A stretch of 64,000 bases of DNA from Clostridia bacterium (GTDB lineage Bacteria; Bacillota; Clostridia; TANB77; UBA1234), in assembly GCA_017518295.1 (NCBI GenBank), contig JAFWVJ010000022.1, positions 19,614-83,613 on the forward strand. The letters run 5' to 3'. Position numbers and translations under genes: made by a program. Shown piece after piece: positions 21,472 through 51,918 of the stretch. Below the pieces are notes generated by a model. That model saw only the letters and a list, made by a program, of their open reading frames with translations, was not told the origin of the DNA and did not search any database. Position 1 is the stretch's first letter, and each line of letters opens with the position of its first letter.

Positions 21472-22752
21472 ATGAAAAAATTATTACTACTAGTTATTAC
21501 AATTATAGTTTGCTTATGCTTAACAGCATGTGGTGGCCAAGAGGAACCAAAAACAAATGATAACAATGCTCAAAATAGTGAAGTAAATAACCAAGAAACA
21601 TCTAATTATGAAGAACCTGCTAAAGAAGAAACAGAGCCTCTTACAAGAGAAGTAAAAGCAGCTAATGTATGGATGAGCTTACCAGAAAATGTAGATATGT
21701 ATTGGAGAGTAGATGAAAAAAATACTTCAAATTATGGTATTGCTGTAGAAAATAAAAGAGGAAATAATGTAATGTATGGAAGTGAAGGTTGGGATTACGG
21801 ATATCCTCCTCAAAGCGAATTTAATAGACTAGAAAATCGCTATAATTACTATGAATATAAAGGCGATTATAAATGGGATTCTTATGCTCATTTTTATGAT
21901 AAAGGTTGGGATACTCATTATTTCAAAGGAAATTATCCATCAAGTCCACAAACATTCTGTATGGGAAGACAATATGTAATTTTGGATAATTATACTGACG
22001 AGCACGAAACAATTAGCATTGAAGGTATTGGCGATGTTGATACAGTTAAAGGAACTTTGGTAGATTATAACGGTACTGATTATACAGTATATTATTCAGA
22101 AAAATTAGGTTTCAACGTTAAAGTAGAAAATACAGTTCAAGCATGGTATTTAACAAAGTTTGATACAAATGTAGGATCTGGTTTTCCACATGCATTACCA
22201 AATCAAAATGAAATAGCAGCAAATTCTTCTCAAACTTATGATGATTATGTTATTGATGATGAAATTATAGAATTTGATGATGTACCAAACGGACCACTTC
22301 CAGAGGATATAATAGTAACAAAAGTAGATGAGTCTGCAGAAGGACTTGTATTTGCATATTATCAAAAGAAAGATGCACAACTAACATTTGGAGATGTTTT
22401 AACAAATTACACAAAAGATTATACTGAAATTAGAACAGGAAGCGGAAGGCAAAGATGTGCATTTTTAGGATTTAAATTAGATGAAAATGATAGAATTCAA
22501 AGAGCTTATGCATGTGTAATATATAAAGGTGTGCTTTATGCAGTTGAAGGAACCACAGACGGAAGTAAATATGAGTCTAACAAAGCAATTATGAATAAAA
22601 TGTATGGACCAGAAGAAATAGATGACAGAGGTTATCGTTATTCAGCTGTAAAAGGAGAAACACATACAGATGTATGGCAAAACGGTCGTGCAGGCACATT
22701 CCATGAAGCTGGTGCACAAATAGATCAGTATGGAAAGATATATTGTGATTAA
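21472..22752 (+). CDS. Lipoprotein of unknown function
   Basis: Signal peptide plus lipobox LTAC; low-complexity N-terminal linker. Confidence 0.6.
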   Translation: MKKLLLLVITIIVCLCLTACGGQEEPKTNDNNAQNSEVNNQETSNYEEPAKEETEPLTREVKAANVWMSLPENVDMYWRVDEKNTSNYGIAVENKRGNNVMYGSEGWDYGYPPQSEFNRLENRYNYYEYKGDYKWDSYAHFYDKGWDTHYFKGNYPSSPQTFCMGRQYVILDNYTDEHETISIEGIGDVDTVKGTLVDYNGTDYTVYYSEKLGFNVKVENTVQAWYLTKFDTNVGSGFPHALPNQNEIAANSSQTYDDYVIDDEIIEFDDVPNGPLPEDIIVTKVDESAEGLVFAYYQKKDAQLTFGDVLTNYTKDYTEIRTGSGRQRCAFLGFKLDENDRIQRAYACVIYKGVLYAVEGTTDGSKYESNKAIMNKMYGPEEIDDRGYRYSAVKGETHTDVWQNGRAGTFHEAGAQIDQYGKIYCD

Positions 22753-22764
22753 TATATAAAAAAT

Positions 22765-22802
22765 AAAAAGTTCGACATATAATATGTCGAACTTTTATTT
22801 TA
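22765..22802. terminator. Bidirectional intrinsic terminator
   Basis: agttcgacatataatatgtcgaact flanked by A- and T-runs. Confidence 0.75.
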
Positions 22803-22803
22803 C

Positions 22804-22977
22804 TTATTTTGTCATTGCCTGGGAAACAAAGAACAGATTGGAGTGCTGAACATAAACGATGTTTACGCCTCCTTCTGGTCTCCAGCCATTTTCAGTAGCG
22901 GCTTTAACTTTTTCTTCAAGTTCTGAGGTGGCAAAATAGATCTGGGAATCGTTGGTTGTGATTACTTTGTAATTCAT
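22804..22977 (-). CDS. Small protein (57 aa, DUF1737-like), below the ORF-track size cutoff
   Basis: RBS AAGGAGG 7 nt before ATG; clean 57-codon frame; forms a pair with the next gene. Confidence 0.5.
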   Translation of the reverse strand: MNYKVITTNDSQIYFATSELEEKVKAATENGWRPEGGVNIVYVQHSNLFFVSQAMTK

Positions 22978-22998
22978 GGTAGAGCCTCCTTAATTTAA

Positions 22999-23232
22999 TT
23001 AAACTTTACGAGAAGAAATAAAGTGCTTTTCTACTTCAAAAGAATTATGACAGGTAGGGCAAGTAATGCTCCAAATTTCATAAGTATCTTCAGCTTTATA
23101 AAACGTATCATCTAAATCGTGCACAGTACAACGTTCGTATTTATTAGTTTTTCTAACATCAGCAGAAGTATATTCAAGTAGTTCGTGACACTTAGGGCAA
23201 GTTACAGTTTTTGATTTTACCTGAACTGCCAT
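22999..23232 (-). CDS. Small zinc-ribbon protein (CPKCH...CPTCH)
   Basis: RBS AAGGAGG before ATG (MAVQVKSK...); two CxxC pairs. Confidence 0.55.
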   Translation of the reverse strand: MAVQVKSKTVTCPKCHELLEYTSADVRKTNKYERCTVHDLDDTFYKAEDTYEIWSITCPTCHNSFEVEKHFISSRKV

Positions 23233-23392
23233 ACTTAGGAGCCTCCTTAAAAAATTTATTTTCAAGCGAATTATAGCATGGTTTATGGAATATGTAAATT
23301 AAAAAAGAGCTTTAATGCACATTTTATAGATAAATTATGTGGTATAATAGCTTAGATGGGACTTTAAATAGAGAATATGGAGACTTTAACAA

Positions 23393-24046
23393 ATGAAAAA
23401 TACAAAAATGGCTTTTGTAATAAATATATTAATAGTGCTATTTGAAATACTTGCGATAAGTTGGATGGCAAGTGGAAGAAGCGGAGGAGTATATTCATTT
23501 CCTGGAATATATATGCTTAACTTTTTTACAATAGATTCAAACATACTTATGGGAATTGCAGCACTGATTTCTATAATAGAGGAGTTTAAAGTAATTAAAG
23601 GTAAAAAAGAAGAAGTATCTAAATTCTCGAGAGCTTTTAAGTTAATGAGCGTAGTTGGAGTAACACTTACAATGTTAGTTACAATGATATTTTTAGCACC
23701 AGCATCACCTTATGGATATTTTTCGTTATTTACTTATAGTAATTTCTTCTTGCACTTATTAAATCCACTACTTAGCATAATAGTATTTGTAATGTTTGAA
23801 AAATCTAAAAGCCTATCTTTAAAACATACATTTATAGGGATAATTCCTATGGTGATATATTCTTTCTATTATGTTTGGGCAGCGGTAACTCATTCACATG
23901 ATGGAATAGTAGAGTCGGGCTATGATTGGTATGGATTTTTTACATTTGGATTAAATAGCATAGTTATTGTACTTCCAATTATGTATGCAATTACCTATGT
24001 AATAAGTGTTGTATTGTGGAAGTTAAATAAAGAAAAAGAAAGGTAG
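23393..24046 (+). CDS. Integral membrane protein (about 6 TM)
   Basis: Hydropathy. Confidence 0.6.
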   Translation: MKNTKMAFVINILIVLFEILAISWMASGRSGGVYSFPGIYMLNFFTIDSNILMGIAALISIIEEFKVIKGKKEEVSKFSRAFKLMSVVGVTLTMLVTMIFLAPASPYGYFSLFTYSNFFLHLLNPLLSIIVFVMFEKSKSLSLKHTFIGIIPMVIYSFYYVWAAVTHSHDGIVESGYDWYGFFTFGLNSIVIVLPIMYAITYVISVVLWKLNKEKER

Positions 24047-24053
24047 TAATAAT

Positions 24054-24617
24054 ATGGATAGAGAAAAAGCTTTTGAATTATTAAAAAAATATAATAAAGA
24101 TGCATTTCATATTAGACATGTATTAACAGTAGAAGGTGCTATGAAATATTTTGCAAGAAAAAATAATGAAGATGAAAACTTTTGGGGATGTGTTGGTCTT
24201 TTGCATGATATAGATTTTGAGAATTGGCCAGAAGAGCACTGCTTAAAAGCACCTGAATTATTAAAAGAAATAAATGCACCAGAAGAATTTATACATGCTG
24301 TATGTTCACATGGTTATGGCTTATGCTGTGATGTAAAACCAGAACTTTTGATGGAAAAGATACTATTTGCAGTAGATGAATTAACAGGATTAGTCGGAGC
24401 AGCTGCGCTAATGAGACCTTCAAAGAGCGTGCAAGATATGGAAGTATCTTCATTAAAGAAGAAGTTCAAAGATAAAAAGTTTGCAGCAGGCTGTTCAAGA
24501 GATGTAATTAGACAAGGAGCAGAAATGCTAGGTTGGGAATTAGATGACTTATTTGCACAAACAATTGATGCAATGAAGGTTGATGAAGAAAAGATAAATA
24601 AATTTATGGTAGAATAA
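24054..24617 (+). CDS. HD-domain phosphohydrolase
   Basis: H...HD motif (LLHDID). Confidence 0.85.
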   Translation: MDREKAFELLKKYNKDAFHIRHVLTVEGAMKYFARKNNEDENFWGCVGLLHDIDFENWPEEHCLKAPELLKEINAPEEFIHAVCSHGYGLCCDVKPELLMEKILFAVDELTGLVGAAALMRPSKSVQDMEVSSLKKKFKDKKFAAGCSRDVIRQGAEMLGWELDDLFAQTIDAMKVDEEKINKFMVE

Positions 24618-24637
24618 ATTGTAAGTGATTTAAATGA

Positions 24638-24667
24638 AAATGATTTTTGGACCTGCCTTAAAAAACA
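24638..24667. repeat. Palindromic ~30-bp element, copy 1 (right arm degenerate)
   Basis: aatgatttttggacctgccttaaaaaacag; about 22 bp upstream of the start of 24689..25423. Confidence 0.8.
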
Positions 24668-24688
24668 GAAACAAAAGAGGAGAACGAT

Positions 24689-25423
24689 ATGAAAAAATTA
24701 ATTCCAGCAATTATAGCAGTAATTATTATAGCGGTAGTTGCAATTATAGTAATGTTAAATAATGCTAACAATGCCAACAATATCAACAATGCAAAGAAAG
24801 ATCCAATTAATTCTACATCAGGAGAGATAATTGAGGTTACTAATAACACTTCTGGTGAAGAAAACAAAGAAGAAAATAAAAACACATTAGAGGATTATTT
24901 AAATGACCAGGTTTGGCTAAGTGAGAACTTATTTATAACAAGTGGTCAATGCGATGTTGGACTGACACAAACACAACAAGTTCATTTTATAAAAACATCA
25001 GATAATACAGGGTTTCTTAAGATTGAAGTAATTGAACCATATGGAATTGATGAATATCTATTGATTGGAATGGATAATGGAACTATTAAAATTGTTGATA
25101 TAAAACGCGATACTGGATACTTTAGTTCATTCGATTTTGCACATGGAGAATTCTTGTATGATACAAATAAAAACACATTTTATTATTGCGTTGAAGATTT
25201 GGATGGAGACTATATAAAACAGGATGTTATTTTTACGATTGATGGATTTGACGTAAATATAATAAAACAAATAATTATAACAGGCGAGGATAATGATTTT
25301 GTAGAAAATAATAAAGAAGTCGAGCAAATGCTTGAAGGATATGATTTTAAAAAGATAGATAATAAGTTGTGCACGATTTATTATCCTGAAATTTATAAAA
25401 AAGATAGTAAATACGATTTTTAG
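24689..25423 (+). CDS. Membrane-anchored secreted protein, paralog family A (with 26275..27900)
   Basis: N-terminal signal anchor; conserved TLEDYLND..WLS and IFTIDGFDVNII blocks shared with the paralog; preceded by palindromic element copy 1. Confidence 0.65.
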   Translation: MKKLIPAIIAVIIIAVVAIIVMLNNANNANNINNAKKDPINSTSGEIIEVTNNTSGEENKEENKNTLEDYLNDQVWLSENLFITSGQCDVGLTQTQQVHFIKTSDNTGFLKIEVIEPYGIDEYLLIGMDNGTIKIVDIKRDTGYFSSFDFAHGEFLYDTNKNTFYYCVEDLDGDYIKQDVIFTIDGFDVNIIKQIIITGEDNDFVENNKEVEQMLEGYDFKKIDNKLCTIYYPEIYKKDSKYDF

Positions 25424-25512
25424 ATAGTATATTATGAATTATTAATCATTAATGGAAATATAGATAGTGAGTATAGCTTTAAAAATAATGCTAGAGCAAA
25501 GTCAAAAAAATA

Positions 25513-25778: not shown

Positions 25779-25888
25779 AATATAAATACCTCCAAAATTA
25801 TTTTTATTGTTATACGGGAGATAAGAATTAATGTGTCAAACACAAATAATATTATACCACAAGTTTACATAACTTTCAAGAAATTTTT

Positions 25889-25914
25889 GAGTTTACATAC
25901 GAATTTAACATATA
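25889..25914 (+). repeat. 26-bp direct repeat, copy 1 (gagtttacatacgaatttaacatata)
   Basis: Exact 26-bp match to 33254-33279; both lie in non-coding DNA about 100-400 bp upstream of palindromic-element copies. Confidence 0.7.
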
Positions 25915-25990: not shown

Positions 25991-26020
25991 AATGTTTTTT
26001 GGACCTGTCCCCAAAAACAA
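25991..26020. repeat. Palindromic ~30-bp element, copy 2
   Basis: aatgttttttggacctgtccccaaaaacaa; about 30 bp upstream of ATG 26051. Confidence 0.85.
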
Positions 26021-26050: not shown

Positions 26051-26273
26051 AATGAATGAAGAAAGGAAAAATGAACAAAAATCAAAAGCAGATGAACTAA
26101 CTGAAAGTCTAGATAAGGTTTTAGTAAAAGCAGGATACGGACCAACAAAAGTGACAGAAAAGATTTGTATCAAGAAGAAGTGTGGTATAATAATTCCAAG
26201 AGATTTAATTATGTTTTTCGGACCTGTCCCAAAAAACAAGTCCCAAAAAACAAGAAGCAAAAGAGGAGAATGA
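26051..26273 (+). CDS. Small hypothetical protein, C-terminus read through palindromic element copy 3
   Basis: RBS AAAGGAG before ATG 26051; the ORF-track ORF 25962..26273 starts inside element copy 2, so the internal start is preferred. Confidence 0.3.
26209..26254. repeat. Palindromic element copy 3 plus tandem duplicate of its right arm (tcccaaaaaacaag x2)
   Basis: tatgtttttcggacctgtcccaaaaaacaagtcccaaaaaacaag; upstream of 26275..27900. Confidence 0.85.
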
Positions 26274-26274: not shown

Positions 26275-27900
26275 ATGAAAAAAATAATTCCAGCAGTTTT
26301 AGTTGTAATAGTTATTGTGGTGGTTGCAATTGTGGTTATGCTTAACAATGCAAATAAAGAAACAATTATTAACACATCAGGAGAAATTATAGAAAAAATT
26401 GAGAACACTTTTGGTGAGGAGAATAAAGAAGAGGAAGTAGAATATAATCCACAGTATGATACTTTGGATGAATATCTAAATGACACAAAATGGCTTTCTA
26501 AACTATATATACCATATTATGCAATGCGAAATGATTTATACTCAACATATGATTGGGATTATGAATATTTAACAAAGCCACAAATAGTGAGCTATGTTAA
26601 AGCAGCAAATGATATTGCTCTTGTTAAAGTACATGTTTTAGAAGAAGAAGTTCGAGATGAATACTATATTGTAGGACTTGAAAATGGAAAAATAAAAATA
26701 GCAAAAATTCCAGAAGATTATGATTGCATTAAACTACCAGAACAGGTAGGTATAAAATTATGTTATGATAAGTCTAATAATGTTTTTAAATATATTTTAG
26801 AAGGTGAAGACTATTACTATGAGGATATTTTTACTTTAGATGGATTTAATGTAAATATTATTAGTCAAGGAAACTCTTTGCCATCAGGAGATTATCATTT
26901 TGAAGATATTGATAGCAATCAATGTGAAATAGAAAATCCTTATCCGCTCAGGTATAGCAAAGAAGGTCGTTACATAGGGGAAAATTTTGAGGGAAAATAT
27001 TTTTGGAAATATGATAATTTAATTAGATATATTAATGAAACAACTAAAGATGATTACACAGATTTTATTAACAAAAACCGTAATAACTTAAAAGATTTTG
27101 CTGCAAGTCATGTAAATTATTCTTATGAACATTATAATGGTGAACGTGCACTGGACGATAGTTTAATTGATGACATTTTGGAACGTGATGGAGATTCTGC
27201 TGGATATATTGAACAAATAACTAACTATGATAGCGCCTTACCAGTAAATTGGAAAGTAGATTTTAAATTTGCAGCTATATTATATAATTTACCATTTTAT
27301 ATGGAGAATTTAATTGTAAATGGTAAAAATTCAAATACATATAAAGGATATAAAGAAACAATTGAAAAATATAAAAATGGAACCTTAGGCAATGATGAAG
27401 AACAAGAGTTTTATAAAAACTTTGATTTAGAAAAATTTATGCAAGATATAGCAAATGACAAAAAATTGAATGATTTAAGAAAAAGAATTAAGACAGATGA
27501 ATATAGTGGATTTACTTTTGAAGAAGAAGCATATTGTACAGCTGTGTATTCGGATTTATTTCAATATATGCCACCAAATCCTTCTGAAAAATACTATAAG
27601 GTTTTTTCGATTACCTTTATGAACGGAAAAAGCGATTCAATAGATGATTATTATGACAATGCTAGAGCGAAGAAAATAAAAATAAAAATAAATGATTGGG
27701 AAAAAGAAATAATTCTTAAAGATACTCCTGAATATCAAAATGTTTGGATAAATTGGGAATCAAAAGGTGATGAATATCAAAAACCAGTTACAGTATCAAT
27801 TGAAGTTTTGGAAAAATATGATGGCGATATAACAGATGATGTGTATTTCTCAGGCATATATATTAATAAAGATCAAAACTTTGTAAGTTTTGCAATTTAA
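26275..27900 (+). CDS. Membrane-anchored secreted protein, paralog family A (longer member)
   Basis: N-terminal and leader DNA nearly identical in layout to 24689; conserved YLND and DGFNVNII blocks. Confidence 0.7.
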   Translation: MKKIIPAVLVVIVIVVVAIVVMLNNANKETIINTSGEIIEKIENTFGEENKEEEVEYNPQYDTLDEYLNDTKWLSKLYIPYYAMRNDLYSTYDWDYEYLTKPQIVSYVKAANDIALVKVHVLEEEVRDEYYIVGLENGKIKIAKIPEDYDCIKLPEQVGIKLCYDKSNNVFKYILEGEDYYYEDIFTLDGFNVNIISQGNSLPSGDYHFEDIDSNQCEIENPYPLRYSKEGRYIGENFEGKYFWKYDNLIRYINETTKDDYTDFINKNRNNLKDFAASHVNYSYEHYNGERALDDSLIDDILERDGDSAGYIEQITNYDSALPVNWKVDFKFAAILYNLPFYMENLIVNGKNSNTYKGYKETIEKYKNGTLGNDEEQEFYKNFDLEKFMQDIANDKKLNDLRKRIKTDEYSGFTFEEEAYCTAVYSDLFQYMPPNPSEKYYKVFSITFMNGKSDSIDDYYDNARAKKIKIKINDWEKEIILKDTPEYQNVWINWESKGDEYQKPVTVSIEVLEKYDGDITDDVYFSGIYINKDQNFVSFAI

Positions 27901-27903: not shown

Positions 27904-27933
27904 TGCCTTTTTGGACCTGTCCCAAAAAACAAG
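27904..27933. repeat. Palindromic element copy 4 (left arm degenerate), overlapping the stop of 26275..27900 and upstream of luxS
   Basis: ttgcctttttggacctgtcccaaaaaacaa. Confidence 0.8.
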
Positions 27934-28454: not shown

Positions 28455-28484
28455 AATGATTTTTGTACCTGTCCCAAAAAACAC
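28455..28484. repeat. Palindromic element copy 5
   Basis: aatgatttttgtacctgtcccaaaaaacac; between luxS and the Mbeg1-like gene. Confidence 0.85.
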
Positions 28485-28505: not shown

Positions 28506-29624
28506 ATGGCAAATATAAATGATTATTTAAATTGGAGAGGCGATCTTCCAATCAACAAAAATTTCCCTTTCAATGAAATTGATGCGTTGATTTTGGCAAG
28601 ATTTTCATATTTGCCTTTTCATAAAATAAAAATGAACTCGAAAGAAACGATTGAAAACATTTCAAAAAGGATGAAAGATTTTTCGAATGATGATTTTATA
28701 TATAATGGCGACAAAGAGCTCATTTCTAATCTTGGAAAAAGCGCGAGATTCAAAGAAATGCTCGTGACGGATTTTGTAAGAAATACGAGCAAAAAACATG
28801 AAGAGCAGTTTTGCGCTATAACAATTCATGTTTCTAATAAAGAAATTTATGTTTCATATATTGGAACCGATTCCACAATAAATGGGTGGAAAGAGGATTT
28901 CAACATGATGTTTTTAGAAAAAATTCCTTGTCAAATCTCAGGTATGAATTATTTGACAAAAATTGGTGAAAAACATCCTTTTTGCAAAATAAGAATTGGC
29001 GGTCATTCAAAAGGTGGAAATATAGCAATTTTTTCTGCGTTGAATGTTGCCAAAAAAATTCAGTCAAAAATAATAAAAGTTTATAATTACGATGGTCCAG
29101 GGTTTAGAAAAGAGATCATCGAGCAGTATGAAAATAGCAGTATTTTGAATAAAGTAGAAACTTATATTCCTCAAGATTCAGTTGTTGGAAGGCTTTTGTA
29201 TCACAAAGAAAAAATAACAATAGTTCATAGCCTAGAAAAAGGCGTTTTGCAGCATGATATTTTTTCTTGGGAAGTTTTGAATGATGATTTTATTTATTCT
29301 GAAAAAATCACAGAGGAAAGCGAAGATATCGACAAGACTATAACGACATGGTTTGAAGAAACATCAAATGAACAAAGAAAAATTGTTGTTGATACGGTAT
29401 TTGATATTTTGTATTCAACAGAAAATGAAAATGTTAAAGATTTAACGCAAAATATTGCGAAAAAAGTGACAAAAGCAATAAAAGCGTATAACTCGATTTC
29501 GAAGGAAGAAAAAGAAACCATAAATAATACGGTTTCGTTGATAGTTAAAAAATATATTAATATAAGAACGGATAGAGAAAAGAAGAAGATTAAAGATTCG
29601 ATAAAAACAATTAGGAAAAGATGA
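28506..29624 (+). CDS. Mbeg1-like / DUF2974 lipase-class-3-like alpha/beta hydrolase
   Basis: GHSKGG nucleophile elbow; family-typical N-terminal region; RBS GGTGAGGTGG. Confidence 0.7.
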   Translation: MANINDYLNWRGDLPINKNFPFNEIDALILARFSYLPFHKIKMNSKETIENISKRMKDFSNDDFIYNGDKELISNLGKSARFKEMLVTDFVRNTSKKHEEQFCAITIHVSNKEIYVSYIGTDSTINGWKEDFNMMFLEKIPCQISGMNYLTKIGEKHPFCKIRIGGHSKGGNIAIFSALNVAKKIQSKIIKVYNYDGPGFRKEIIEQYENSSILNKVETYIPQDSVVGRLLYHKEKITIVHSLEKGVLQHDIFSWEVLNDDFIYSEKITEESEDIDKTITTWFEETSNEQRKIVVDTVFDILYSTENENVKDLTQNIAKKVTKAIKAYNSISKEEKETINNTVSLIVKKYINIRTDREKKKIKDSIKTIRKR

Positions 29625-29649
29625 TTTTTGGGACAGGTACGAAAAACAT
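29621..29649. repeat. Palindromic element copy 6a (opposite orientation), overlapping the TGA stop of 28506..29624
   Basis: atgatttttgggacaggtacgaaaaacat. Confidence 0.85.
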
Positions 29650-29653
29650 GTAA

Positions 29654-29684
29654 AAATGTTTTTCGGACCTGTCTCAAAAATCAT
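29654..29684. repeat. Palindromic element copy 6b, overlapping the stop of the LysR gene; full-length 31-bp palindrome
   Basis: aatgtttttcggacctgtctcaaaaatcatt. Confidence 0.85.
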
Positions 29685-30565
29685 TTAATAGTTTTAATAA
29701 TTTCTTTAATAAATTTATTATTCTCGTTATTTTTATTTGTAGCTAAATAAATTGTTCTTGTAGGGAAGGCTATGTCGCTTTTAATTTCGACTAGCTTTCC
29801 TTTTTTAATTAAGTCACTAATATAAGGCTTGTTAAATAAAGCAAAACCATAGCCTTGCACAATTAAATCTAGCGCCATTTCAAAAGAATCTATGTCTAAA
29901 AATGGCGTGATATATAGATTGTTTTCAGATAAGAAGTCATCCAAGAGAATTCTAGTAGCAGACTTTTTGCCTGTGGCAATAAAAGGATATTTTGAAATAT
30001 TATCCTTTGTGATTTTTTTGATATTAAATTTTTCAACAAATTCTTTAGAAGCAACAAATACTCTTTCGACTTTTTCCCACTCAATATATGAAATATTTTC
30101 TCTAAATAGATCATTTCTATTGATAAACCCAATATCTACAGAGTTATTAATAATAGAATCAAGAATTTGTTCATTAGACAAAATTTCAAGTTTAATATTT
30201 AAGCCAGGATTTTTTTTAATAATCTTTGGTATGGCAGGAGCTAAGATTATCCTTGCACTTCCGAAGCTGCTTGCAAAATTAAGATTCTTTGGAGATGTAC
30301 TGAATTTTGATAAAGCTTCCGGCACATTCTCTAATGATAAAATAGAATTTTCAATTATCTTAAAGATTTCTTCGCCTTCTTTAGTAAATTCAACACCATA
30401 TTTAGTTCTATAGAATAAAGTGCAATTTAATTCACGTTCTAATTTTTTTAATTGATGGGTGATGGCAGGCTGTGAAATAAAAAGATTGCTAGATGCCTTG
30501 GTGATATTTTTAGTTTTTCCAACTTCGTAAAAAATTTTATATAAATCAAGATTAATATTGTTCAT
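29681..30565 (-). CDS. LysR-family transcriptional regulator
   Basis: N-terminal HTH (ITKASSNLFISQPAITHQLKKLE); start at ATG 30565 with AAGGAG RBS rather than ORF-track 30652. Confidence 0.9.
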   Translation of the reverse strand: MNNINLDLYKIFYEVGKTKNITKASSNLFISQPAITHQLKKLERELNCTLFYRTKYGVEFTKEGEEIFKIIENSILSLENVPEALSKFSTSPKNLNFASSFGSARIILAPAIPKIIKKNPGLNIKLEILSNEQILDSIINNSVDIGFINRNDLFRENISYIEWEKVERVFVASKEFVEKFNIKKITKDNISKYPFIATGKKSATRILLDDFLSENNLYITPFLDIDSFEMALDLIVQGYGFALFNKPYISDLIKKGKLVEIKSDIAFPTRTIYLATNKNNENNKFIKEIIKTIK

Positions 30566-30716
30566 ATGGACTCCTTTTAAATATAAATATTTTAAATAAC
30601 TGATATAAAAACTATGTATTTTATTTATATCACAAAACGCACTATAATTCAATTGTAAAGTAAAAAATTATAGTAGTTTTTCGAATGTCTTAAGAAAACA
30701 AAAGGAGGAAGCATCT

Positions 30717-31984: not shown

Positions 31985-32021
31985 AACCTTGAGGTCGCAA
32001 ATTGCGACCTCAAGTTTTTTT
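31985..32021 (+). terminator. Intrinsic terminator
   Basis: cttgaggtcgcaaattgcgacctcaag plus T7. Confidence 0.85.
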
Positions 32022-32133
32022 CCAATAATTTCATGTGTGTCCCCAAGTCAAATTTTTGATTTTATCTCCGTCCCGAAATCATAATATAGACAAAAGAGGC
32101 GATATTGGGTATAGTAAAAGAGGAGGAGAAGAT

Positions 32134-33102
32134 ATGATTTTTTGGTTTATCCTATGCTTTTTGCTAGGTGGAGCAGCGGCTGGAATTGAATATTATTTAA
32201 AAATCAAAAGAGATAAAGACCAGTATTATTCATCTACTTATTACCGCTTTACGCAAAAGGATTATAAAGCTGTAATGAATGATACAGGCGCTTTAGGTGA
32301 ATATGATACATATAAAAGTCTTAAAAAGCACGAAGATATAGGTGGAAGGTTTTTATACAATGTGTATTTGCCTAAAGAGGATGGAACGACGACAGAAATA
32401 GATATGCTACTTATCACGCCAAAAGGAATCTTTGTCTTCGAAAGCAAGAATTTTAGTGGAATAATTTTTGGAGAATATGATCAAAAGAATTGGACACAGT
32501 ATTTGAATCGTCACACAAAAGAGCATTTTTATAATCCAATAAAACAAAATGAAACTCATATAAAATATTTAAAAGAACAACTGAAAATGATTTTTGGACC
32601 TGTCCCAAAAAACATAGCGATATATTCGATGGTGGTGTTTTCGAAAAGATGCAAGCTAGGGAAGGTGCCAGAATTCACGGCTGATACATTTGTAATTAAA
32701 AGAGAAAATGTGGAGCGAGTAGTAGATAATATAATAATGAGCAAAGCATCAAATGATATTACTTATAAAGAGGTAGATGAAATACAAAAAGCATTATTTG
32801 CTTATACACAAAAAACTAAGCAAGAAAAAGAGAAGCATGTAGAGGATATAAGAAGTAAAAGTGCCATTAATTATGAAAGAACATCTAAAGATGATGCACT
32901 AAAGAATAGGCTAAAAGGATTTCGCACAGAAACGGCAAGAAAATATCGAAAGCCACCATATTATATATTTAATGATGAAGAACTAGAAAAACTGATTGCT
33001 ATAAAACCAAAAACACAAGCTGAAGTATATAATATATTGCCAAAAGTAAAAGCAAATTATTATAGTAAAGAAATAGTGAAGATAATAAATGAAGAGAAGT
33101 AG
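32134..33102 (+). CDS. NERD-domain protein with C-terminal HRDC-like domain; contains an in-frame copy of the palindromic element
   Basis: RBS AGAGGAGGAG before ATG 32134; NERD core (EIDMLLITPKGIFVFESKNFSG); C-terminus like RecQ HRDC. Confidence 0.75.
   Translation: MIFWFILCFLLGGAAAGIEYYLKIKRDKDQYYSSTYYRFTQKDYKAVMNDTGALGEYDTYKSLKKHEDIGGRFLYNVYLPKEDGTTTEIDMLLITPKGIFVFESKNFSGIIFGEYDQKNWTQYLNRHTKEHFYNPIKQNETHIKYLKEQLKMIFGPVPKNIAIYSMVVFSKRCKLGKVPEFTADTFVIKRENVERVVDNIIMSKASNDITYKEVDEIQKALFAYTQKTKQEKEKHVEDIRSKSAINYERTSKDDALKNRLKGFRTETARKYRKPPYYIFNDEELEKLIAIKPKTQAEVYNILPKVKANYYSKEIVKIINEEK
32586..32615. repeat. Palindromic element copy 7, in-frame inside the NERD gene (encodes MIFGPVPKN)
   Basis: aatgatttttggacctgtcccaaaaaacat. 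Confidence 0.85.
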
Positions 33103-33133
33103 AAATGTTTTTTGGGTGTGCCCAAAAAACAAG
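33102..33133. repeat. Palindromic element copy 8 (degenerate core gggtgtgccc), directly after the NERD stop codon and before a terminator
   Basis: aaatgttttttgggtgtgcccaaaaaacaag. Confidence 0.7.
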
Positions 33134-33135: not shown

Positions 33136-33166
33136 AAAAAGAGGCAACTTATGTTGCCTCTTTTTT
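33136..33166 (+). terminator. Intrinsic terminator after NERD gene and element copy 8
   Basis: agaggcaacttatgttgcctct plus TTTTTT. Confidence 0.8.
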
Positions 33167-33253
33167 GATTATTAAATTATTATTACAGTTTTTTACTTCA
33201 CATATTCAATATACACATTTTTTATGAGCACAAAAATCAATAAAAAAATATAG

Positions 33254-33279
33254 GAGTTTACATACGAATTTAACATATA
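33254..33279 (+). repeat. 26-bp direct repeat, copy 2
   Basis: Exact match to 25889-25914. Confidence 0.7.
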
Positions 33280-33677: not shown

Positions 33678-33708
33678 AAATGTTTTTTGGACCTGTCCCA
33701 AAAAACAT
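33678..33708. repeat. Palindromic element copy 9, upstream of the WG-repeat gene
   Basis: aaatgttttttggacctgtcccaaaaaacat. Confidence 0.85.
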
Positions 33709-41656: not shown

Positions 41657-42577
41657 ATGAAGGAAGAAATAATTATGGAAACTATAGAAAAAGCAAGACC
41701 TTTTGTTAAGTGGGCTGGAGGTAAAGCAGGACTTATTCCTCAAATAACAAAGTACTATCCAGATGCTTTAAAATCAGGTCAAATAGAAAGATATATTGAA
41801 CCATTTCTTGGTGGGGGAGCAATTCTTTTAGATGTACTTCAAAAGTATGATGTAAAGGAAGCCTATGCTTATGATACAAATCAAGATTTGGTTAATGCAT
41901 ATAATGTGATAAAAACGGATGTAGATAATCTTATTAAGAAATTGCAAAAATATGAAAAAGAATATTTGCCATTGGATGAAGAAGAAAGAAAAGAGTACTA
42001 CTACGATTTAAGAGATGAATATAATTCTGCAGAAGTTAAGTCTGGAAAGCTATCATATAAAAGAGCAGCACAGTTTATATTCTTAAACAAAACATGCTTT
42101 AATGGTTTGTACAGAGTAAATGCAAGTGGTGATTTCAATGTGCCAATGGGTAATTATAAAAATCCGACAATTTGCGATACTGAAAACTTACTAAAGCTAT
42201 CTAGATTACTACAAAATGTTGAAATTATCTGTGGAGATTACCATGATACATTAGAGTTAGTTAATCCAAAAACTTTTGTGTATTTTGATCCACCTTATAG
42301 ACCATTACCGGATACTAATGGTTTTACTTCATACACAAAGGATGACTTCAATGACGAAGACCAAAAGAGGTTGGGAGAATTCTATAAGCAACTAAGTCAA
42401 AAAGATGCAAAATTGATGCTAAGTAATTCTAATCCAAAGAACACAAATGAAAGTGATACATTCTTTGATGACTTATACAAAGGCTTTTATATAAATGAAG
42501 TACAGGCGAATAGAGCAATTAATTCAGATGGCGCAAAGAGAGGCAAAATTTCTGAGCTACTGATAATTAATTATTAG
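41657..42577 (+). CDS. Dam-like N6-adenine DNA methyltransferase (DpnM-like, GATC)
   Basis: FVKWAGGK motif and DPPY catalytic motif (VYFDPPYRPL). Confidence 0.9.
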   Translation: MKEEIIMETIEKARPFVKWAGGKAGLIPQITKYYPDALKSGQIERYIEPFLGGGAILLDVLQKYDVKEAYAYDTNQDLVNAYNVIKTDVDNLIKKLQKYEKEYLPLDEEERKEYYYDLRDEYNSAEVKSGKLSYKRAAQFIFLNKTCFNGLYRVNASGDFNVPMGNYKNPTICDTENLLKLSRLLQNVEIICGDYHDTLELVNPKTFVYFDPPYRPLPDTNGFTSYTKDDFNDEDQKRLGEFYKQLSQKDAKLMLSNSNPKNTNESDTFFDDLYKGFYINEVQANRAINSDGAKRGKISELLIINY

Positions 42578-42585
42578 AGGTTACA

Positions 42586-43380
42586 ATGAAAGAAAAAACT
42601 TATTATTTTAATAAAAAAGATTTTAAGTTAATAAATAAAGATACATTAAAAGCTACTAAAAATATGAAGGATAAAACATTTGATATGATTTTTGCAGATC
42701 CTCCATATTTTTTGTCTAATAGTGGCATAACTTGTAGTGGCGGTAAGATGGTAAGTGTAAATAAAGGCGAGTGGGATAAAGCAAAGTCGCTTGAAGACAA
42801 GCATGAGTTCAACAGAGAGTGGATTAGAGAGTGTTATAGAATTTTAAAAGATGATGGAACGATTTGGATAAGTGGAACACTTCACAATATTTATTCTATT
42901 GGTATGGCACTTGAAGAAGAAGGTTTTAAAATCATTAATAATATTACATGGCAAAAAACAAACCCACCACCAAACTTAGCTTGCAAGACTTTTACACATT
43001 CAACAGAAACAGTATTGTGGGCTAGGAAAGATATTAAAGGAGCAAAATATAAATTTAACTATAAATTGATGAAAGAGCTAAATGGCAACAAGCAAATGAA
43101 AGATGTATGGACAACTTCTTTGACAAAACCATCAGAGAAGAAGTTTGGCAAGCATCCTACACAAAAACCATTAGAGTTGCTTGAAAAAATTGTACTAGCT
43201 TCAACTAATGAAAATGATTTGATATTAGATCCTTTTAGTGGAAGCGGTACTACTGGAATTGCAGCTGCAATGCATAATAGAAAATATATTGGAATTGATT
43301 TGGATAAAAGCTATTTAGATATTTCTATTAAGAGATATGAAAGCTTAAATGGAGGACTAGATGGAGAAAAGAAATTTTGA
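42586..43380 (+). CDS. Second N6-adenine DNA methyltransferase (DpnA-like, beta class)
   Basis: DPPY (IFADPPYF) near N-terminus; AdoMet motif DPFSGSGTTG at C-terminus. Confidence 0.85.
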   Translation: MKEKTYYFNKKDFKLINKDTLKATKNMKDKTFDMIFADPPYFLSNSGITCSGGKMVSVNKGEWDKAKSLEDKHEFNREWIRECYRILKDDGTIWISGTLHNIYSIGMALEEEGFKIINNITWQKTNPPPNLACKTFTHSTETVLWARKDIKGAKYKFNYKLMKELNGNKQMKDVWTTSLTKPSEKKFGKHPTQKPLELLEKIVLASTNENDLILDPFSGSGTTGIAAAMHNRKYIGIDLDKSYLDISIKRYESLNGGLDGEKKF

Positions 43381-44209
43381 TGAATGGATTGGTGGATTTA
43401 GAGAGAGCATTGCAAATTATAAATACTATGTTGATTTTGATGTTGTTTATGAAAATGTCGAAAAATTCAAGGTTGAATTGAATATTTTGAACAGCTTGAT
43501 AGGTTCGAAGAATATAGAAAAGGAGTTCTTGGATATTATTAAGCAATATCCTAATACTTTGAAATGTGTACCATTTTTATTGGCTGTTAGAAGATTGGAA
43601 ATTTTAGCTCAAGATGAAGACATGCAATACATTTATAAATTTGCTCAAATGAATTACGCTCCAGAACAATATGCTGTATTGATGAAAGAGACAGGATTAT
43701 TTGAATTGCTTGAAAACCATTTGGTAAGTAGTTTGATAGACTATGCGCTTGGCGTTGAAGTAGGATTAAACTCAAATGGAAGAAAAAATCGTGGTGGGCA
43801 TTTGATGGAAGATTTAGTCGAAAGCCACATAAAAAAAGCTGGATTTAAAGAGTATTATAAAGAGATGTACTTAAATGAGATTGAAGAAAAATGGGGACTC
43901 GATTTATCGAGTATTTCAGGAGATGGAACTTCAACAAAGAGATTTGATTTTGTTATAAAAACCGACAATATGGTTTATGGAATTGAGACTAATTTTTATG
44001 CTTCTGGTGGTTCTAAACTTAATGAAACAGCTAGAAGTTATAAGATGATAGCTGAAGAAGCCAAGAATATTAAAGAATTCAAATTTGTTTGGATTACTGA
44101 TGGAAGTGGCTGGGTGTCAGCTAGAAGAAACTTGAAAGAGACATTTGATGTGTTAGAAAATATATACTGCATAAAAGACTTAGAAGAGGGAGTACTTAAG
44201 AAATTATAA
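43361..44209 (+). CDS. DpnII-family type II restriction endonuclease (GATC)
   Basis: Size, position after two GATC-type methylases and family-like sequence; overlaps the methylase gene by 20 bp. Confidence 0.8.
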   Translation: MEKRNFDEWIGGFRESIANYKYYVDFDVVYENVEKFKVELNILNSLIGSKNIEKEFLDIIKQYPNTLKCVPFLLAVRRLEILAQDEDMQYIYKFAQMNYAPEQYAVLMKETGLFELLENHLVSSLIDYALGVEVGLNSNGRKNRGGHLMEDLVESHIKKAGFKEYYKEMYLNEIEEKWGLDLSSISGDGTSTKRFDFVIKTDNMVYGIETNFYASGGSKLNETARSYKMIAEEAKNIKEFKFVWITDGSGWVSARRNLKETFDVLENIYCIKDLEEGVLKKL

Positions 44210-45262: not shown

Positions 45263-45427
45263 ATGCCATTCTATATGATTGAAATTAATGAAAACCTTTC
45301 TAGAATTATAGATATTGAAGCGGAGGATGAAGAATCTACTTTGAAGATTGCTAGAGAGAAATATAAAAATGGAGAAATAGTTTTAGATAGTGATGACTAT
45401 GTTGATACAACGTTCACTGTTCAATAG
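45263..45427 (+). CDS. DpnD/PcfM-like small protein (54 aa), below the ORF-track size cutoff
   Basis: RBS AGGAG; ...IEAEDEESTLKIAREKY...DSDDYVDTTFTVQ fits the DpnD/PcfM family pattern; sits next to the DpnII-type system as in pneumococcal dpn cassettes. Confidence 0.4.
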   Translation: MPFYMIEINENLSRIIDIEAEDEESTLKIAREKYKNGEIVLDSDDYVDTTFTVQ

Positions 45428-45449
45428 AATAAGAGAGGATGTGATAATA

Positions 45450-45944
45450 ATGGCTGAATTAAGAGATTTGTATGATATAAATAGTAATAAGACAGATAAA
45501 ACATATATGAAAGGTGATCCGATTCCCGAAGGTTATTATCCAATGGTGGTAATGGTTGTTATTAGAAATTCTAAAGGTGAATTTTTAATGCAAAAAAGAG
45601 TGGAATCTAAAGGTGGAGATTGGGGAGTAACTGGTGGTCACCCTAAATCTGGAGAAACGCCTATGGAAGGTATTATTACCGAAGTTAAAGAAGAATTAGG
45701 ATTAGATTTTTCTAATGAAAGATTTGTTGAATATGATTCTGGTTGTGACGGAAAAGATTGTTACAAGATGTATTTTGTTACTAAAGATATAGATATTAGC
45801 GAAATCACAATTCAAGAGGAAGAGTTAAGTGAAGTAAGATGGTTTACCATGGATGAATTAAAAAGTATGGTAGAGTCTGGCGAACTAAACGAAGACCAAA
45901 TCGCATGCTTTAATAAAGTGTGCAAGTTTCTTGGTCGCAAATGA
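45450..45944 (+). CDS. Nudix hydrolase (paralog of the C-terminal domain of 50923..51918)
   Basis: Nudix box GGHPKSGETPMEGIITEVKEELG; about 85 percent nucleotide identity to 51437-51918. Confidence 0.85.
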   Translation: MAELRDLYDINSNKTDKTYMKGDPIPEGYYPMVVMVVIRNSKGEFLMQKRVESKGGDWGVTGGHPKSGETPMEGIITEVKEELGLDFSNERFVEYDSGCDGKDCYKMYFVTKDIDISEITIQEEELSEVRWFTMDELKSMVESGELNEDQIACFNKVCKFLGRK

Positions 45945-45970
45945 TTCTTGGGACAGGTCTCAAAATCATT
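45940..45970. repeat. Palindromic element copy 10 (opposite orientation), overlapping the TGA stop of Nudix gene 45450..45944 and preceding the truncated kinase fragment
   Basis: aatgattcttgggacaggtctcaaaatcatt. Confidence 0.8.
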
Positions 45971-46003
45971 CTTATGATATAATTACTGTTGGAGATGATA
46001 CAA

Positions 46004-46147
46004 ATGTCAAAATTATATATTATTACTGGTCCTGCTGGAGTGGGCAAGAGTACTATTTCAAAAAAGATTGCAGAGAGCCTTTCTAAATCGGTTTTAATTG
46101 AAGGTGATGATATTTATAGTCAAGTTATAGAGATTAAAAGGAGATGA
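46004..46147 (+). pseudogene. Truncated duplicate of P-loop kinase gene 48515..49024 (first about 45 codons only)
   Basis: About 95 percent nucleotide identity over about 105 bp to 48530-48640, then diverges and stops at the amylase RBS. Confidence 0.6.
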
Positions 46148-50922: not shown

Positions 50923-51918
50923 TTGAAACACAAAATTTTTAATGAAGATAATTTAAAAGATGAAGATATGGATGGCTCTGTTGTTAGAGTTAAAGCTTTT
51001 ATCATTAATAATAATGACGAAGTTATTATGGCTTCGTCTAATGGTGGTGTTCAATTAATTGGCGGACATGTCGAAGATGGAGAGTCAGAAGTTGAAACTC
51101 TAAAGCGTGAGATATTAGAAGAAGCTGGTATCGAAGTTTCAAATGAAGAAATTTCGAATGTCTTTTACGAAGTTAGGCACTATACAAAAAATTATTATAA
51201 TTCTGGTAAAAACGTTTTATCTATAATTCATTATTATTTAGTTCATACAGATAAATCTCCAAATCTAGAAAAAGTGCATCGCACAAGTCAAGAAAAAAGA
51301 TATGCTTTTGAATTAAAATATATTCCTTTAGATTCTTTTGAAGAAGTTTTAAGCGAATATCTTAATAACGACAAAGAAATAAACAGAATAATTGCTGCTG
51401 AAACTATAGAAGCATTTAAAAATATTCCTGAGCTAAGAGATTTGTATGATATAAACAGTAATAAAACAGATAAAACATATAGAAAAGGTGATAAGGTTCC
51501 TGAAGGTTATTATCCTATGGTAGTTATGGTTGTAATTAGAAATTCTAAGGGCGAATTTTTAATGCAAAAAAGAGTAGAGTCTAAAGGCGGAGATTGGGGA
51601 GTAACAGGTGGTCATCCAAAATCTGGAGAAACTCCTATTGAAGGAATAATTACCGAAGTAAAAGAAGAATTAGGATTAGATTTTTCTAATGAGAATTTTA
51701 TCGAATATGATTCTGGTTGTGATGGAAAAGATTGCTACAAGATGTACTTTGTTACAAAAGATGTAGATATAAACGACATCAAAATTCAAGAAGAAGAGCT
51801 TACTGAAGTTAGATGGTTTACTATGGATGAACTAAAAAGCATGGTAGATTCTGGAGAATTAAATGAAGATCAAATAGCATGCTTTAATAAAGTGTGTGAT
51901 TTTTTAAATAAAAAATAA
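50923..51918 (+). CDS. Tandem double Nudix-domain hydrolase
   Basis: TTG start with GGAGG RBS; two Nudix boxes (GGHVEDGESEVETLKREILEEAG and GGHPKSGETPIEGIITEVKEELG). Confidence 0.8.
   Translation: MKHKIFNEDNLKDEDMDGSVVRVKAFIINNNDEVIMASSNGGVQLIGGHVEDGESEVETLKREILEEAGIEVSNEEISNVFYEVRHYTKNYYNSGKNVLSIIHYYLVHTDKSPNLEKVHRTSQEKRYAFELKYIPLDSFEEVLSEYLNNDKEINRIIAAETIEAFKNIPELRDLYDINSNKTDKTYRKGDKVPEGYYPMVVMVVIRNSKGEFLMQKRVESKGGDWGVTGGHPKSGETPIEGIITEVKEELGLDFSNENFIEYDSGCDGKDCYKMYFVTKDVDINDIKIQEEELTEVRWFTMDELKSMVDSGELNEDQIACFNKVCDFLNKK

Follow-up and report, generated by a model that had tools for sequence, protein, structure and literature searches.

An inverted doublet of a 29-nt palindromic repeat carries the stop codons of two convergent genes in an uncultured Clostridia bacterium

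Results

The window (the whole stretch of DNA that was analysed, 64,000 nt of contig JAFWVJ010000022.1 from a low-GC member of the Clostridia) contains an Mbeg1-like gene and a gene for a LysR-family regulator that point towards each other, and between them lie two copies of a palindromic repeat, inverted and back-to-back (Table 1). The initial annotation had described this pair, and it was recovered both by direct reading of the sequence and by a repeat finder (29621-29684), which returned 29-nt arms that are 93% complementary and 6 nt apart. Read in the same orientation, copies 6a and 6b are identical at 27 of their 29 positions. Relative to the minus-strand LysR gene, copy 6b stands in the reverse orientation, which is the 3'-end type.

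Both genes terminate inside the repeat. The Mbeg1-like reading frame ends with the TGA at 29622-29624, within the ATGA of the outer arm of 6a, as had been claimed. For the LysR gene, the initial annotation had taken a TAA in the last bases of 6b as the stop codon, and here it has to be corrected: that TAA (29686-29688) is neither on the strand of the gene nor in its frame. Since the LysR reading frame starts its span at 29681 on the minus strand, its stop is the tca at 29681-29683, i.e. a TGA within the ATGA of the 6b outer arm (TCAT on the plus strand). The two convergent genes thus end on the same outer-arm ATGA, and the arrangement is more symmetric than first described. A third gene end of this kind, proposed at 45942, was also found: the Nudix A reading frame (45390..45944) stops at the TGA 45942-45944 within aTGAttcttgggacaggt, inside a reverse-orientation copy. 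In its paralogue Nudix B the stop falls on the corresponding codon but is a TAA, not a TGA, and the copy at 45941 marks the joint between a partial Nudix B duplicate and a 130-nt 5' fragment of a kinase gene. Comparison with homologues places the end of the Mbeg1-like protein within a variable tail, and the Mbeg1 orthologue in the related locus L058 has no copy of the repeat and is followed by an ordinary terminator.

Table 1. Repeat copies and adjoining genes in the window, in order of position
Feature	Coordinates	Strand	Description
E1	24640..24668	+	centre ACCTGCC, degenerate right arm, no fold; 20 nt upstream of ATG 24689
E2	25992..26020	+	31 nt upstream of small ORF at 26052
E3	26211..26253	+	copy 26211-26239 plus 14-nt repeat of right arm; second TCCCAAAAAACAAG ends at 26253
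E4	27904..27932	+	odd left arm TGCCTTTTTGG; 3 nt past stop of 541-aa gene; left boundary of luxS segment
E5	28456..28484	+	2 nt past luxS stop, 21 nt before Mbeg1 ATG; right boundary of luxS segment
Mbeg1-like (DUF2974) gene	28506..29624	+	flanked by inverted copies: E5 (forward) upstream, 6a (reverse) at stop
Copy 6a	29621..29649	-	ATGATTTTTGGGACAGGTACGAAAAACAT; reverse orientation, plus-strand centre GACAGGT; 43 bits, E 6.5e-06
Doublet spacer	29650..29655	.	gtaaaa; 6 nt between inner (left) arms, loop of long hairpin
Copy 6b	29656..29684	+	ATGTTTTTCGGACCTGTCTCAAAAATCAT; forward; 49.7 bits
LysR-family regulator gene	29681..30565	-	ORF to 30565/30652; convergent with Mbeg1-like gene
Degenerate copy	32055..32082	+	by eye, about 21/29 matches, weak model match; upstream of NERD gene; preceded by right half-site 32040-32052
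E7	32587..32615	+	inside NERD-HRDC gene (32134..33102), in frame, encodes MIFGPVPKN
E8	33105..33132	+	variant centre GTGTGC; 2 nt past NERD stop, just before ordinary terminator 33136-33165
E9	33680..33708	+	best consensus match; 18 nt upstream of ATG 33727
Nudix copy	45941..45969	-	reverse orientation; its ATGA gives the Nudix A TGA stop

The repeat is a 29-nt imperfect palindrome with the consensus ATGwTTTTyGG-ACCTGTC-CCAAAAAwCAw, in which two 11-nt arms enclose an asymmetric, well conserved 7-nt centre (11-7-11; in copy E8, 11-6-11). Read 5' to 3' it runs ATGTTTTTT ... AAAAAACAT, so that GTT comes first and AAC last. In an alignment of the copies the left flanks are A-rich, with (T)(G/A)AAA leading into the ATG, and resemble the spacer of the doublet. 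The 18-mer ATGATTTTTGGGACAGGT occurs 10 times in the window when up to 3 mismatches are allowed; shuffled sequences have an expectation of 0.09, and none of 100 shuffles reached 10. Scanning with a covariance model, filters off, gave 11 significant copies, 10 of them extragenic. The same number, 10 of the 11, fall inside 9.1 kb, in one variable region of the genome, a degree of clustering equalled in only 2 of 200,000 random placements. No copies were present at 1-24.6 kb or 46-64 kb of the window, or in the flanks (84 kb covered), and in particular the model recovered no copy from the roughly 19 kb of genome on either side; one model match in the upstream flank (L068, position 6505) proved to be an ordinary terminator.

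The placement of the copies follows the gene boundaries. Forward copies precede start codons by 18-35 nt, at a near-constant distance from the ribosome-binding sites, reverse copies lie at or past stops, and most copies are within 0-4 nt of a stop codon. Four consecutive units, containing a 73-aa ORF, the 541-aa gene, luxS and Mbeg1, are each built as element, 18-35 nt, ORF and a further 0-4 nt. In the paralogous genes at 24689 and 26275, element and ribosome-binding site are shared as one duplicated unit. The copies of the window lie either between promoter and ribosome-binding site or where no promoter is near, and the divergent promoter region of LysR and DHH (30566-30716) held no copy in the model scan. 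The start-proximal ATGs of the initial annotation do belong to the palindrome (ATG...CAT), but none serves as a start codon; the starts that were called are located downstream at the distance given above. Several other identities of the repeat were considered and rejected. As a promoter, it has by eye no sigma-70 -10 box correctly spaced from the TTGAAA that flanks it, no GC at -12 for sigma-54, and too short a spacing for an ECF-type factor. An upstream leader peptide (MFFGPVPKN...) would lack a Shine-Dalgarno sequence before the element ATG, and its frame relation to the downstream gene varies. Hin/Gin hix sites have the opposite A/T-tract polarity.

Comparison with homologues and related loci revealed several changes that involve copies. 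The MIFGPVP stretch encoded by E7 is a 7-aa insertion in the NERD protein, missing in all 19 homologues of a protein-level alignment, one of which comes from a relative whose genome carries a sister family of the repeat. At the E3 site, L048 and L040 have a single copy, the window has one copy with 14 nt added, and L062 has two in tandem. In L062 the order is 577-aa gene, reverse copy, gctaaa, forward E5 and Mbeg1, and in the window it is 541-aa gene, E4, luxS, E5 and Mbeg1. The presence or absence of luxS thus falls exactly between two direct copies, and E4 corresponds to the inverted doublet of L062 minus 34 inner nucleotides, i.e. a single hybrid copy left by collapse. Homology between L040 and the window sets in about 12 nt upstream of E2. 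Other strain-specific indels of the region have no bounding copies (window 22229-25505, missing in L062). Among the relatives compared there was no nucleotide-level pair of an empty and a filled site for a simple insertion, and no target-site duplication could be defined. Judged from the in-frame 21 nt of the NERD gene and the variants of the E3 site, the sequences show that copies have been inserted or duplicated. The initial annotation had offered three functions for the doublet, a bidirectional transcription barrier, an RNA-stabilising 3' structure and a marker of recombination junctions; it is the last of these that finds direct comparative support.

A sister family with the centre ATGTGTC was found in one other uncultured lineage, with 5 copies in 4.5 kb of locus L055. 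These include an inverted doublet of the same geometry, and its spacer (agaaaaa), like that of the L062 doublet (gctaaa), is of the same length class as gtaaaa. Three consecutive gene modules of L055 are each bracketed by forward and reverse copies, and L055 differs from the window in the genes that it carries between the conserved NERD gene and a 108-aa gene. The L055 copies lie outside transcription units, past terminators and ahead of promoters, which points to an element acting at the DNA level; two of them precede -35 boxes, by 8 and 20 nt. Copies within one genome are more alike than they are to the copies of the related lineage. In GTDB representative genomes, the exact pattern had single chance matches only, mostly in a Collinsella coding sequence. 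When JGI metagenomes were scanned for the arms only, two true relatives, L040 and L048, were recovered alongside simple hairpins that are unrelated. No match to the element pattern was found in viral contigs, and BLAST searches of plasmids and phages with the region and with the doublet returned no meaningful match. Mbeg1 homologues (72% and 64% identity), further NERD homologues and a 43% homologue of the 541-aa protein likewise had no copies at their loci.

In-silico folding bore out the earlier suggestion of a long cruciform or double hairpin to the extent that the pair forms a very stable 29-bp hairpin, with -42.3 and -33.9 kcal/mol and z = -12 and -10 on the two strands. A terminator scan did not flag the doublet, in which the anatomy of an intrinsic terminator (A-tract, stem, U-tract) is not found. 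No Rfam family matched at the gathering score, and a permissive scan returned only microRNA-precursor noise with E > 0.1 on the long hairpin.

Discussion

The 29-nt family is, apparently, previously undescribed. The interpretation that we prefer, with a probability of about one half, is that it represents a small, mobile and recombinogenic palindrome of the REP/BIME/REPIN type, specific to its lineage. Like those repeats of Proteobacteria, which are mobilised by RAYT proteins, it is a short imperfect palindrome (in the range of 20-40 nt) that recurs many times between genes, as singlets, as tandem clusters and as inverted doublets folding into a long hairpin (6a/6b, and also in L062 and L055). 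In both cases the copies of one lineage are alike and those of different lineages diverge, and copies are present at the joints of duplications and rearrangements and at gene 3' ends, where mRNA can be affected. The spread of the repeat would require an enzyme acting in trans, encoded elsewhere, that recognises the hairpin or its arms, for example a single-strand transposase of the IS200/RAYT type. The later rearrangements may then have come about by recombination or slippage between copies, together with deletion of palindrome centres. At the convergent gene pair, the doublet would consist of two copies in the 3'-end orientation, one for each gene, abutting head-to-head. With ATGA as the letters of the outer arm, both genes would have come to terminate on a TGA of the element, and the resulting 29-bp hairpin would occupy the place of the usual bidirectional terminator. 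There it probably influences where the two mRNAs end, as an exonuclease block or processing site, though as a by-product and not as the purpose of the element.

Several features set the family apart from classical REPs. It is tightly clustered, in about 9 kb, in contrast to their genome-wide dispersal, and it lacks the 5' GT[AG]G foot of RAYT-recognised REPs. Neither a RAYT (Y1_Tnp) nor another domain of a transposase or recombinase turned up in those window ORFs that were tested or among the precomputed Pfam matches of the flanks of about 19 kb. The 29-nt copies of the doublet are separated by a 6-nt spacer, compared to 71-110 bp in the REPINs of P. fluorescens. The host is an uncultured low-GC member of the Clostridia, one copy is genic and in frame, and the orientation is tied to gene ends. 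The last point, together with the copies that abut stop codons, is not predicted for a purely selfish element, and is predicted for a cassette system.

The main rival explanation is a minority possibility in our estimate: the 29-mers may be the sites of a dedicated site-specific recombination of single-gene cassettes, comparable to integron attC arrays or to the pdif modules of Acinetobacter plasmids. The 11-bp arms would bind the recombinase, the 6-7-bp crossover region would give direction, and a doublet would represent the abutting end-sites of two modules. The 11-7-11 (in E8, 11-6-11) architecture with its asymmetric conserved centre fits this reading, and so do the strong local clustering, the four consecutive element-plus-ORF units, the duplication of element and ribosome-binding site as a unit in the 24689 and 26275 paralogues, the luxS segment that is gained or lost exactly between direct copies, and the bracketed modules of L055 with their different content between the NERD and 108-aa genes. 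Stop codons in or beside the site point the same way, since integron cassettes commonly have stop codons within or right beside theirs. The lone in-frame copy inside the NERD gene, however, is unlike a cassette site, the 22229-25505 indel is not bounded by copies, and the junctions are non-conservative: the 14-nt partial repeat, the 35-nt tandem and the 34-nt collapse resemble slippage or palindrome deletion rather than precise exchange. The 84 kb examined yielded no recombinase, and by eye the element is unlike attC or the dif arm consensus. In its full form this explanation would make the 29-mers the sites of an undescribed single-gene cassette exchange system of low-GC Clostridia, a functional analogue of integrons and dif modules that reshuffles chromosomal accessory or defence-type genes (luxS, the Mbeg1-like lipase, NERD, TspO and others), and this we consider unlikely.

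Comparison with the two known systems bears on the same question. With integron cassettes, such as those separated by the repeats of the Vibrio cholerae super-integron, the locus shares unrelated ORFs in the same direction, separated by imperfect palindromes in one orientation, with a very short distance from site to start, stops in or beside the site, and gene-sized presence/absence bounded by sites. The attC sites are 57-141 nt long, with RYYYAAC as inverse core at the 5' end and GTTRRRY as core at the 3' end. They have R''/L''/L'/R' boxes, extrahelical bases and the order AAC...GTT, whereas the present element has 29 nt and the order GTT...AAC, with no integrase in the window ORFs scanned and no attI nearby. 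The pdif/dif sites acted on by Xer recombinases are similar in size (about 28-29 bp, with 11-bp arms around a 6-7-bp centre), and they too bracket, in inverted orientation, modules whose content is shuffled between relatives, as in L055 and around Mbeg1 in the window. The luxS, 541-aa and 73-aa units, by contrast, are bounded by direct copies. The arms of our element are identical palindromes (TTTTTGG/CCAAAAA) that by eye differ from the XerC/XerD consensus, which may not be that of this host. Adjacent modules here each own a site, resulting in doublets, and the context is chromosomal.

Two further explanations concern transcription and RNA. The element could serve at the RNA level, single copies acting as hairpins of 5'-UTRs or intercistronic regions in mRNA stability or processing, and the doublet as a substitute terminator or 3' stabiliser. 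The doublet is indeed the sole structure between Mbeg1 and LysR, while a canonical bidirectional terminator stands between the genes of each of the 8 further convergent pairs of the window, and a canonical terminator follows the L058 orthologue of Mbeg1; the hairpin of the doublet is very stable on both strands, and the distance of forward copies from ribosome-binding sites is near-constant. We nevertheless find this improbable as the function of the element, as the stems show no compensatory variation (pairing of 80.7%, vs 79.7% in shuffles), E1 and E5 do not fold, E7 is inside a coding region and the L055 copies are outside transcription units. The order of the runs, T in the 5' arm and A in the 3' arm, is opposite to that of the 8 canonical terminators. 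Since the element has no intrinsic-terminator anatomy, it is only its position that suggests a barrier to transcription or a stabiliser of RNA. Alternatively, the palindrome could be the operator of a dimeric transcription factor, for which the adjacent LysR-type regulator is one candidate, the neighbouring genes forming its regulon. The arms, with TGG-N7-CCA, fit the T-N11-A of LysR-type sites, copies cluster around the LysR gene, and the two L055 copies near -35 boxes would be suitably placed. The positions relative to promoters are inconsistent, however, tandem and partial duplicates exist, the LysR/DHH promoter region has no copy, and the doublet between two gene 3' ends has nothing to regulate. 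The initial annotation had already remarked that this is not the behaviour of an ordinary operator, and one copy in frame in coding sequence, others between terminator and promoter, and a pair between convergent genes uphold that judgement; we regard an operator as very improbable.

The presence of a copy within the NERD gene has parallels elsewhere. Rickettsia palindromic elements (RPEs) and very small dispersed repeats of cyanobacteria can sit in frame in genes without destroying them, as small palindromes tolerated within coding sequence in the manner of E7. RPEs have 100-150 nt, and the cyanobacterial repeats are dispersed and nested; we know of neither being associated with the supply of stop codons or with gene-module boundaries.

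To the best of our knowledge, small palindromic repeats have been well studied in Proteobacteria, barely in Firmicutes, and not in this gut- or rumen-type lineage of Clostridia. In gene calling and annotation, it is to be expected that the repeat creates ends of ORFs as well as small spurious ORFs (MFFGPVPKN...). If the cassette explanation were true, the locus would represent a new gene-capture system in Gram-positive anaerobes. Within a few kilobases the family combines an in-frame insertion in a conserved protein, a change of copy number at one site between strains, an inverted pair collapsed to one hybrid copy and a whole gene gained or lost exactly between two copies. It thus preserves, in little space, a natural history of the ways in which these repeats reshape the boundaries of genes, provide them with stop codons and take over from terminators.

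A clustered family of oriented palindromes

The element is a 29-nt imperfect palindrome with the consensus ATGwTTTTyGG-ACCTGTC-CCAAAAAwCAw over all copies, in which two 11-nt arms flank a 7-nt asymmetric centre that sets its orientation. Its 18-mer core is present at 10 places in the window, where 0.09 would be expected; the site singled out in the initial annotation (29619-29686) is real and non-random. A covariance model built from 16 copies and run on the window with filters off returned 11 significant copies. Ten of these lie within 9.1 kb, a clustering matched by 2 of 200,000 random placements (5 of 200,000 if only intergenic bases are used), and no copy was found in ~19 kb of flanking genome on the same metagenomic contig. 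Where forward copies precede genes, they lie directly 5' of the ribosome-binding site, with 18-35 nt from copy end to same-strand start codon; reversed copies lie on or past a stop codon. Most copies begin 0-4 nt after an upstream stop codon.

Copies of the element and the genes that end in them (window coordinates)
Feature	Position	Orientation or strand	Start codon served or remark
E1	24640	forward	24689
E2	25992	forward	26052
E3	26211	forward	26275
E4	27904	forward	27965
E5	28456	forward	28506
6a	29621-29649	reversed	
6b	29656-29684	forward	
E7	32587	forward	
E8	33105	forward	variant, centre GTGTGC
E9	33680	forward	33727
Reversed copy	45941-45969	reversed	
Decayed copy and half-site	32040-32082		
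Mbeg1-like gene	28506..29624	+	Pfam PF11187
LysR gene	29681..30565	minus	
Nudix A gene	45390..45944		stop inside reversed copy

A 73-aa ORF in public gene predictions (26052-26273) runs through E3, and the element accounts for its last 21 residues, MFFGPVPKNKSQKTRSKRGE; an in-frame 5' extension from the GTG at 25962 would read through E2 too. It is uncertain whether this ORF is a real gene. A 37-nt direct repeat (25878-25914 and 33243-33279, 89% identical, core AGTTTACATACGAATTTAACATATA) lies ~80 nt 5' of E2 and ~400 nt 5' of E9, and is also conserved in two related-strain loci, L048 and L062. It may serve both transcription units as a promoter or operator; no sigma-70 spacing at it was convincing.

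A doublet between convergent genes

Read directly, 29621-29684 is ATGATTTTTGGGACAGGTACGAAAAACAT gtaaaa ATGTTTTTCGGACCTGTCTCAAAAATCAT. The repeat finder resolves this stretch into a pair of 29-nt arms (93% complementary, separated by 6 nt); each arm is one whole copy of the palindrome. Placed in the same orientation, 6a and 6b are identical at 27 of 29 positions and have in common the variants TTTTTCG and AAATCAT, which are absent in most other copies. Folding confirmed that the pair can form a hairpin, of 29 bp on both strands (plus, -42.3 kcal/mol, z = -12; minus, -33.9 kcal/mol, z = -10).

The window has 8 further convergent gene pairs, and every one is served by a canonical bidirectional terminator (A-tract, G+C stem, T-tract), while the Mbeg1/LysR pair has the doublet alone between its genes. 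Because its T-run is 5' and its A-run 3', and because the terminator scan did not flag it, the doublet takes the position of a terminator without the anatomy of one. In that position it may halt polymerase, impede exonucleases or be cleaved by a double-strand RNase. Relative to its own minus-strand LysR gene 6b is reversed, and the doublet therefore consists of two 3'-end-type copies, one per convergent gene. Two of the canonical terminators (59494-59534 and 60370-60410), belonging to different convergent pairs, are 88% identical copies (AAAAACTCGGAGAnTTTTCTCCGAGTTTTTT).

The Mbeg1-like gene stops inside 6a, as had been noted, at the TGA 29622-29624 within the outer ATGA. The TAA named as the LysR stop was wrong: since the ORF lies on the minus strand, its stop is tca 29681-29683, which reads as TGA within 6b's outer ATGA. 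Nudix A does end in the same arrangement. Its longer paralogue Nudix B (89% identical over 300 nt) ends at the exact same codon position, with TAA instead of TGA, so Nudix A was not truncated by the element, whose ATGA overlies the ancestral stop. The Mbeg1 C-terminus falls within a lysine-rich, length-variable tail, 1-3 residues shorter than in several homologues and 17 shorter than in the closest ones; no copy is present at the locus of the closest homologue (L058), where the gene is followed by an ordinary terminator. In L062 and in a sister lineage, reversed copies lie 3-88 nt past stops and not on them, suggesting that stop supply is an occasional consequence of the ATGA in the outer arm, probably kept owing to a near-unchanged protein.

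Insertion, duplication and rearrangement at the copies

E7 lies in frame inside the NERD-HRDC gene. Of the residues it encodes, MIFGPVP form a 7-residue insertion that 19 of 19 aligned homologues lack, among them P0002 from the sister-family organism. The E3 site, 5' of a 541-aa gene, holds a single copy in L048 and in a third related-strain locus, L040. In the window the single copy is extended by 14 nt that repeat its right arm, and in L062 there are two complete copies in tandem (period 35 nt). The paralogous genes 24689 and 26275 have element and ribosome-binding site in common as one duplicated unit.

The claim that the element marks recombination junctions was upheld. In L062 the 541-aa orthologue is followed by a head-to-head doublet (reversed copy, gctaaa, forward E5) and directly by the Mbeg1 start, and luxS is missing; the window has the order E4, luxS, E5, Mbeg1. 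Therefore, two direct copies are the exact bounds of the gain or loss of luxS. E4, which has an odd left arm, equals the L062 doublet minus 34 inner nucleotides, indicating that hybrid singlets can arise by collapse of a doublet. Homology between L040 and the window begins ~12 nt 5' of E2, and the L040 DNA before it differs from that of the window, carrying instead a terminator hairpin and half-site found upstream of NERD in the window. The reversed copy at 45941 is placed between the partial Nudix B duplicate and a 130-nt 5' fragment of kinase gene 48482. Copies do not delimit all differences between strains: L062 lacks window 22229-25505 (3.3 kb; L062 685/661), and neither junction of this gap is at an element.

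The hairpin (cttgaggtcgcaaattgcgacctcaag) with its right half-site (window 31988-32052, L040 755-818, 92% identical) is a second small repeated module of the variable region. Nudix A (184 aa) is a partial duplicate of Nudix B (50923..51918), from its C-terminal half, and the P-loop kinase fragment after it resembles what is left of a pseudogene; the two make up a small mosaic of duplicated segments at 45450-46133. The segment missing from L062 holds the 3' part of a 426-aa lipoprotein gene, two minus-strand genes, a 217-aa membrane protein, an HD gene, E1 and a 244-aa gene; L048 has an ADP-ribosylglycohydrolase gene in its place. The secreted NADase_transloc (F5/8 type C) protein of 26275-27900 is 60% identical to its positional orthologue (L062 1451-3184, 577 aa), with flanking DNA 88-98% identical, and has three detectable homologues among 5.8 billion protein clusters searched, which suggests a fast-evolving or swapped surface protein.

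The stretch 41657-44209 encodes a DpnII-type restriction-modification system (D12-class N6-adenine methyltransferase, DpnII endonuclease, and a second methyltransferase, of DPPY type, assigned by eye). Nearby are an HTH-domain gene (37327), which the precomputed Pfam annotation of L027 lists as a weak Peptidase_U49, and NERD, HD, CYTH, DUF1737 and Nudix genes; the whole resembles an island of defence or accessory genes. Strand asymmetry is very strong (GC skew ~+0.25 over most of the window, ~85% of ORFs on the + strand), a higher-GC block (0.37-0.44) occupies 1-12 kb, and no tRNA, rRNA or riboswitch exceeded Rfam thresholds in the 64 kb.

Nature of the element

A primary function in RNA is improbable: in the 16-copy alignment 80.7% of cells are paired against 79.7% in column shuffles, pair counting found no excess of double changes, single copies fold at -13.3 to -1.6 kcal/mol with E1 and E5 forming no hairpin, and three copies in L055, from the more distant organism, each sit between an intrinsic terminator and a -35/-10 promoter, outside transcripts. 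An operator is less probable still, in keeping with the initial annotation, as promoter-relative positions differ between loci, one copy is inside a coding region and the doublet sits between two gene 3' ends; the covariance-model scan found no copy in the LysR/DHH divergent promoter region. That annotation's interpretation was right in part: the hairpin, the junction marking and the rejection of an operator stand.

We favour, with a probability of about 0.5, a REP-like mobile or recombinogenic repeat. REP/BIME/REPIN sequences are short extragenic palindromes with hairpin-forming inverted doublets, lineage-specific populations and a presence at rearrangement joints (PMC3116915, PMC3337134), and they are the closest kind. 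The element is only a candidate member of that class: unlike REPs, it has no GT[AG]G foot and its copies are clustered, not dispersed. Clostridia are reported to have RAYT transposases of group 1 (PMC5581495); no RAYT was found in the 84 kb examined. The main rival, a system of cassettes comparable to integrons or dif modules (PMC6449649, PMC13141974), would account for the 11-7-11 architecture, the series of element-plus-ORF units, the stop codons adjoining sites, the luxS indel and the bracketed modules in L055. We consider it unlikely, given that a lone copy lies in frame, that the junction variants are non-conservative and that no recombinase was found nearby.

Few true relatives were found. 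ENA contigs encoding the window's LuxS, small ORF or end proteins were all 99.97-100% identical to the window. The exact core pattern gave only single chance matches among 185,579 GTDB representative genomes and none in viral contigs; plasmid and phage collections contained nothing similar, and Rfam no match. True relatives are L048 (88.7% identical over 1.1 kb), L040 and L062 (80-98% identical). L054/L055, whose NERD protein is 56% identical to that of the window, carry the sister family ATGATTTTTGG-ATGTGTC-CCAAAAATCAT, of which five copies lie within 4.5 kb. Copies are absent from the loci of other relatives (43-72% protein identity). E8, which directly follows the NERD gene and is similar to the sister type, may represent an old copy. 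Copies of one genome have their centre in common (ACCTGTC in the window, ATGTGTC in L054/L055), which is the pattern of amplification or homogenisation inside lineages. The element is new and narrowly distributed, and belongs to an already known kind of bacterial repeat.
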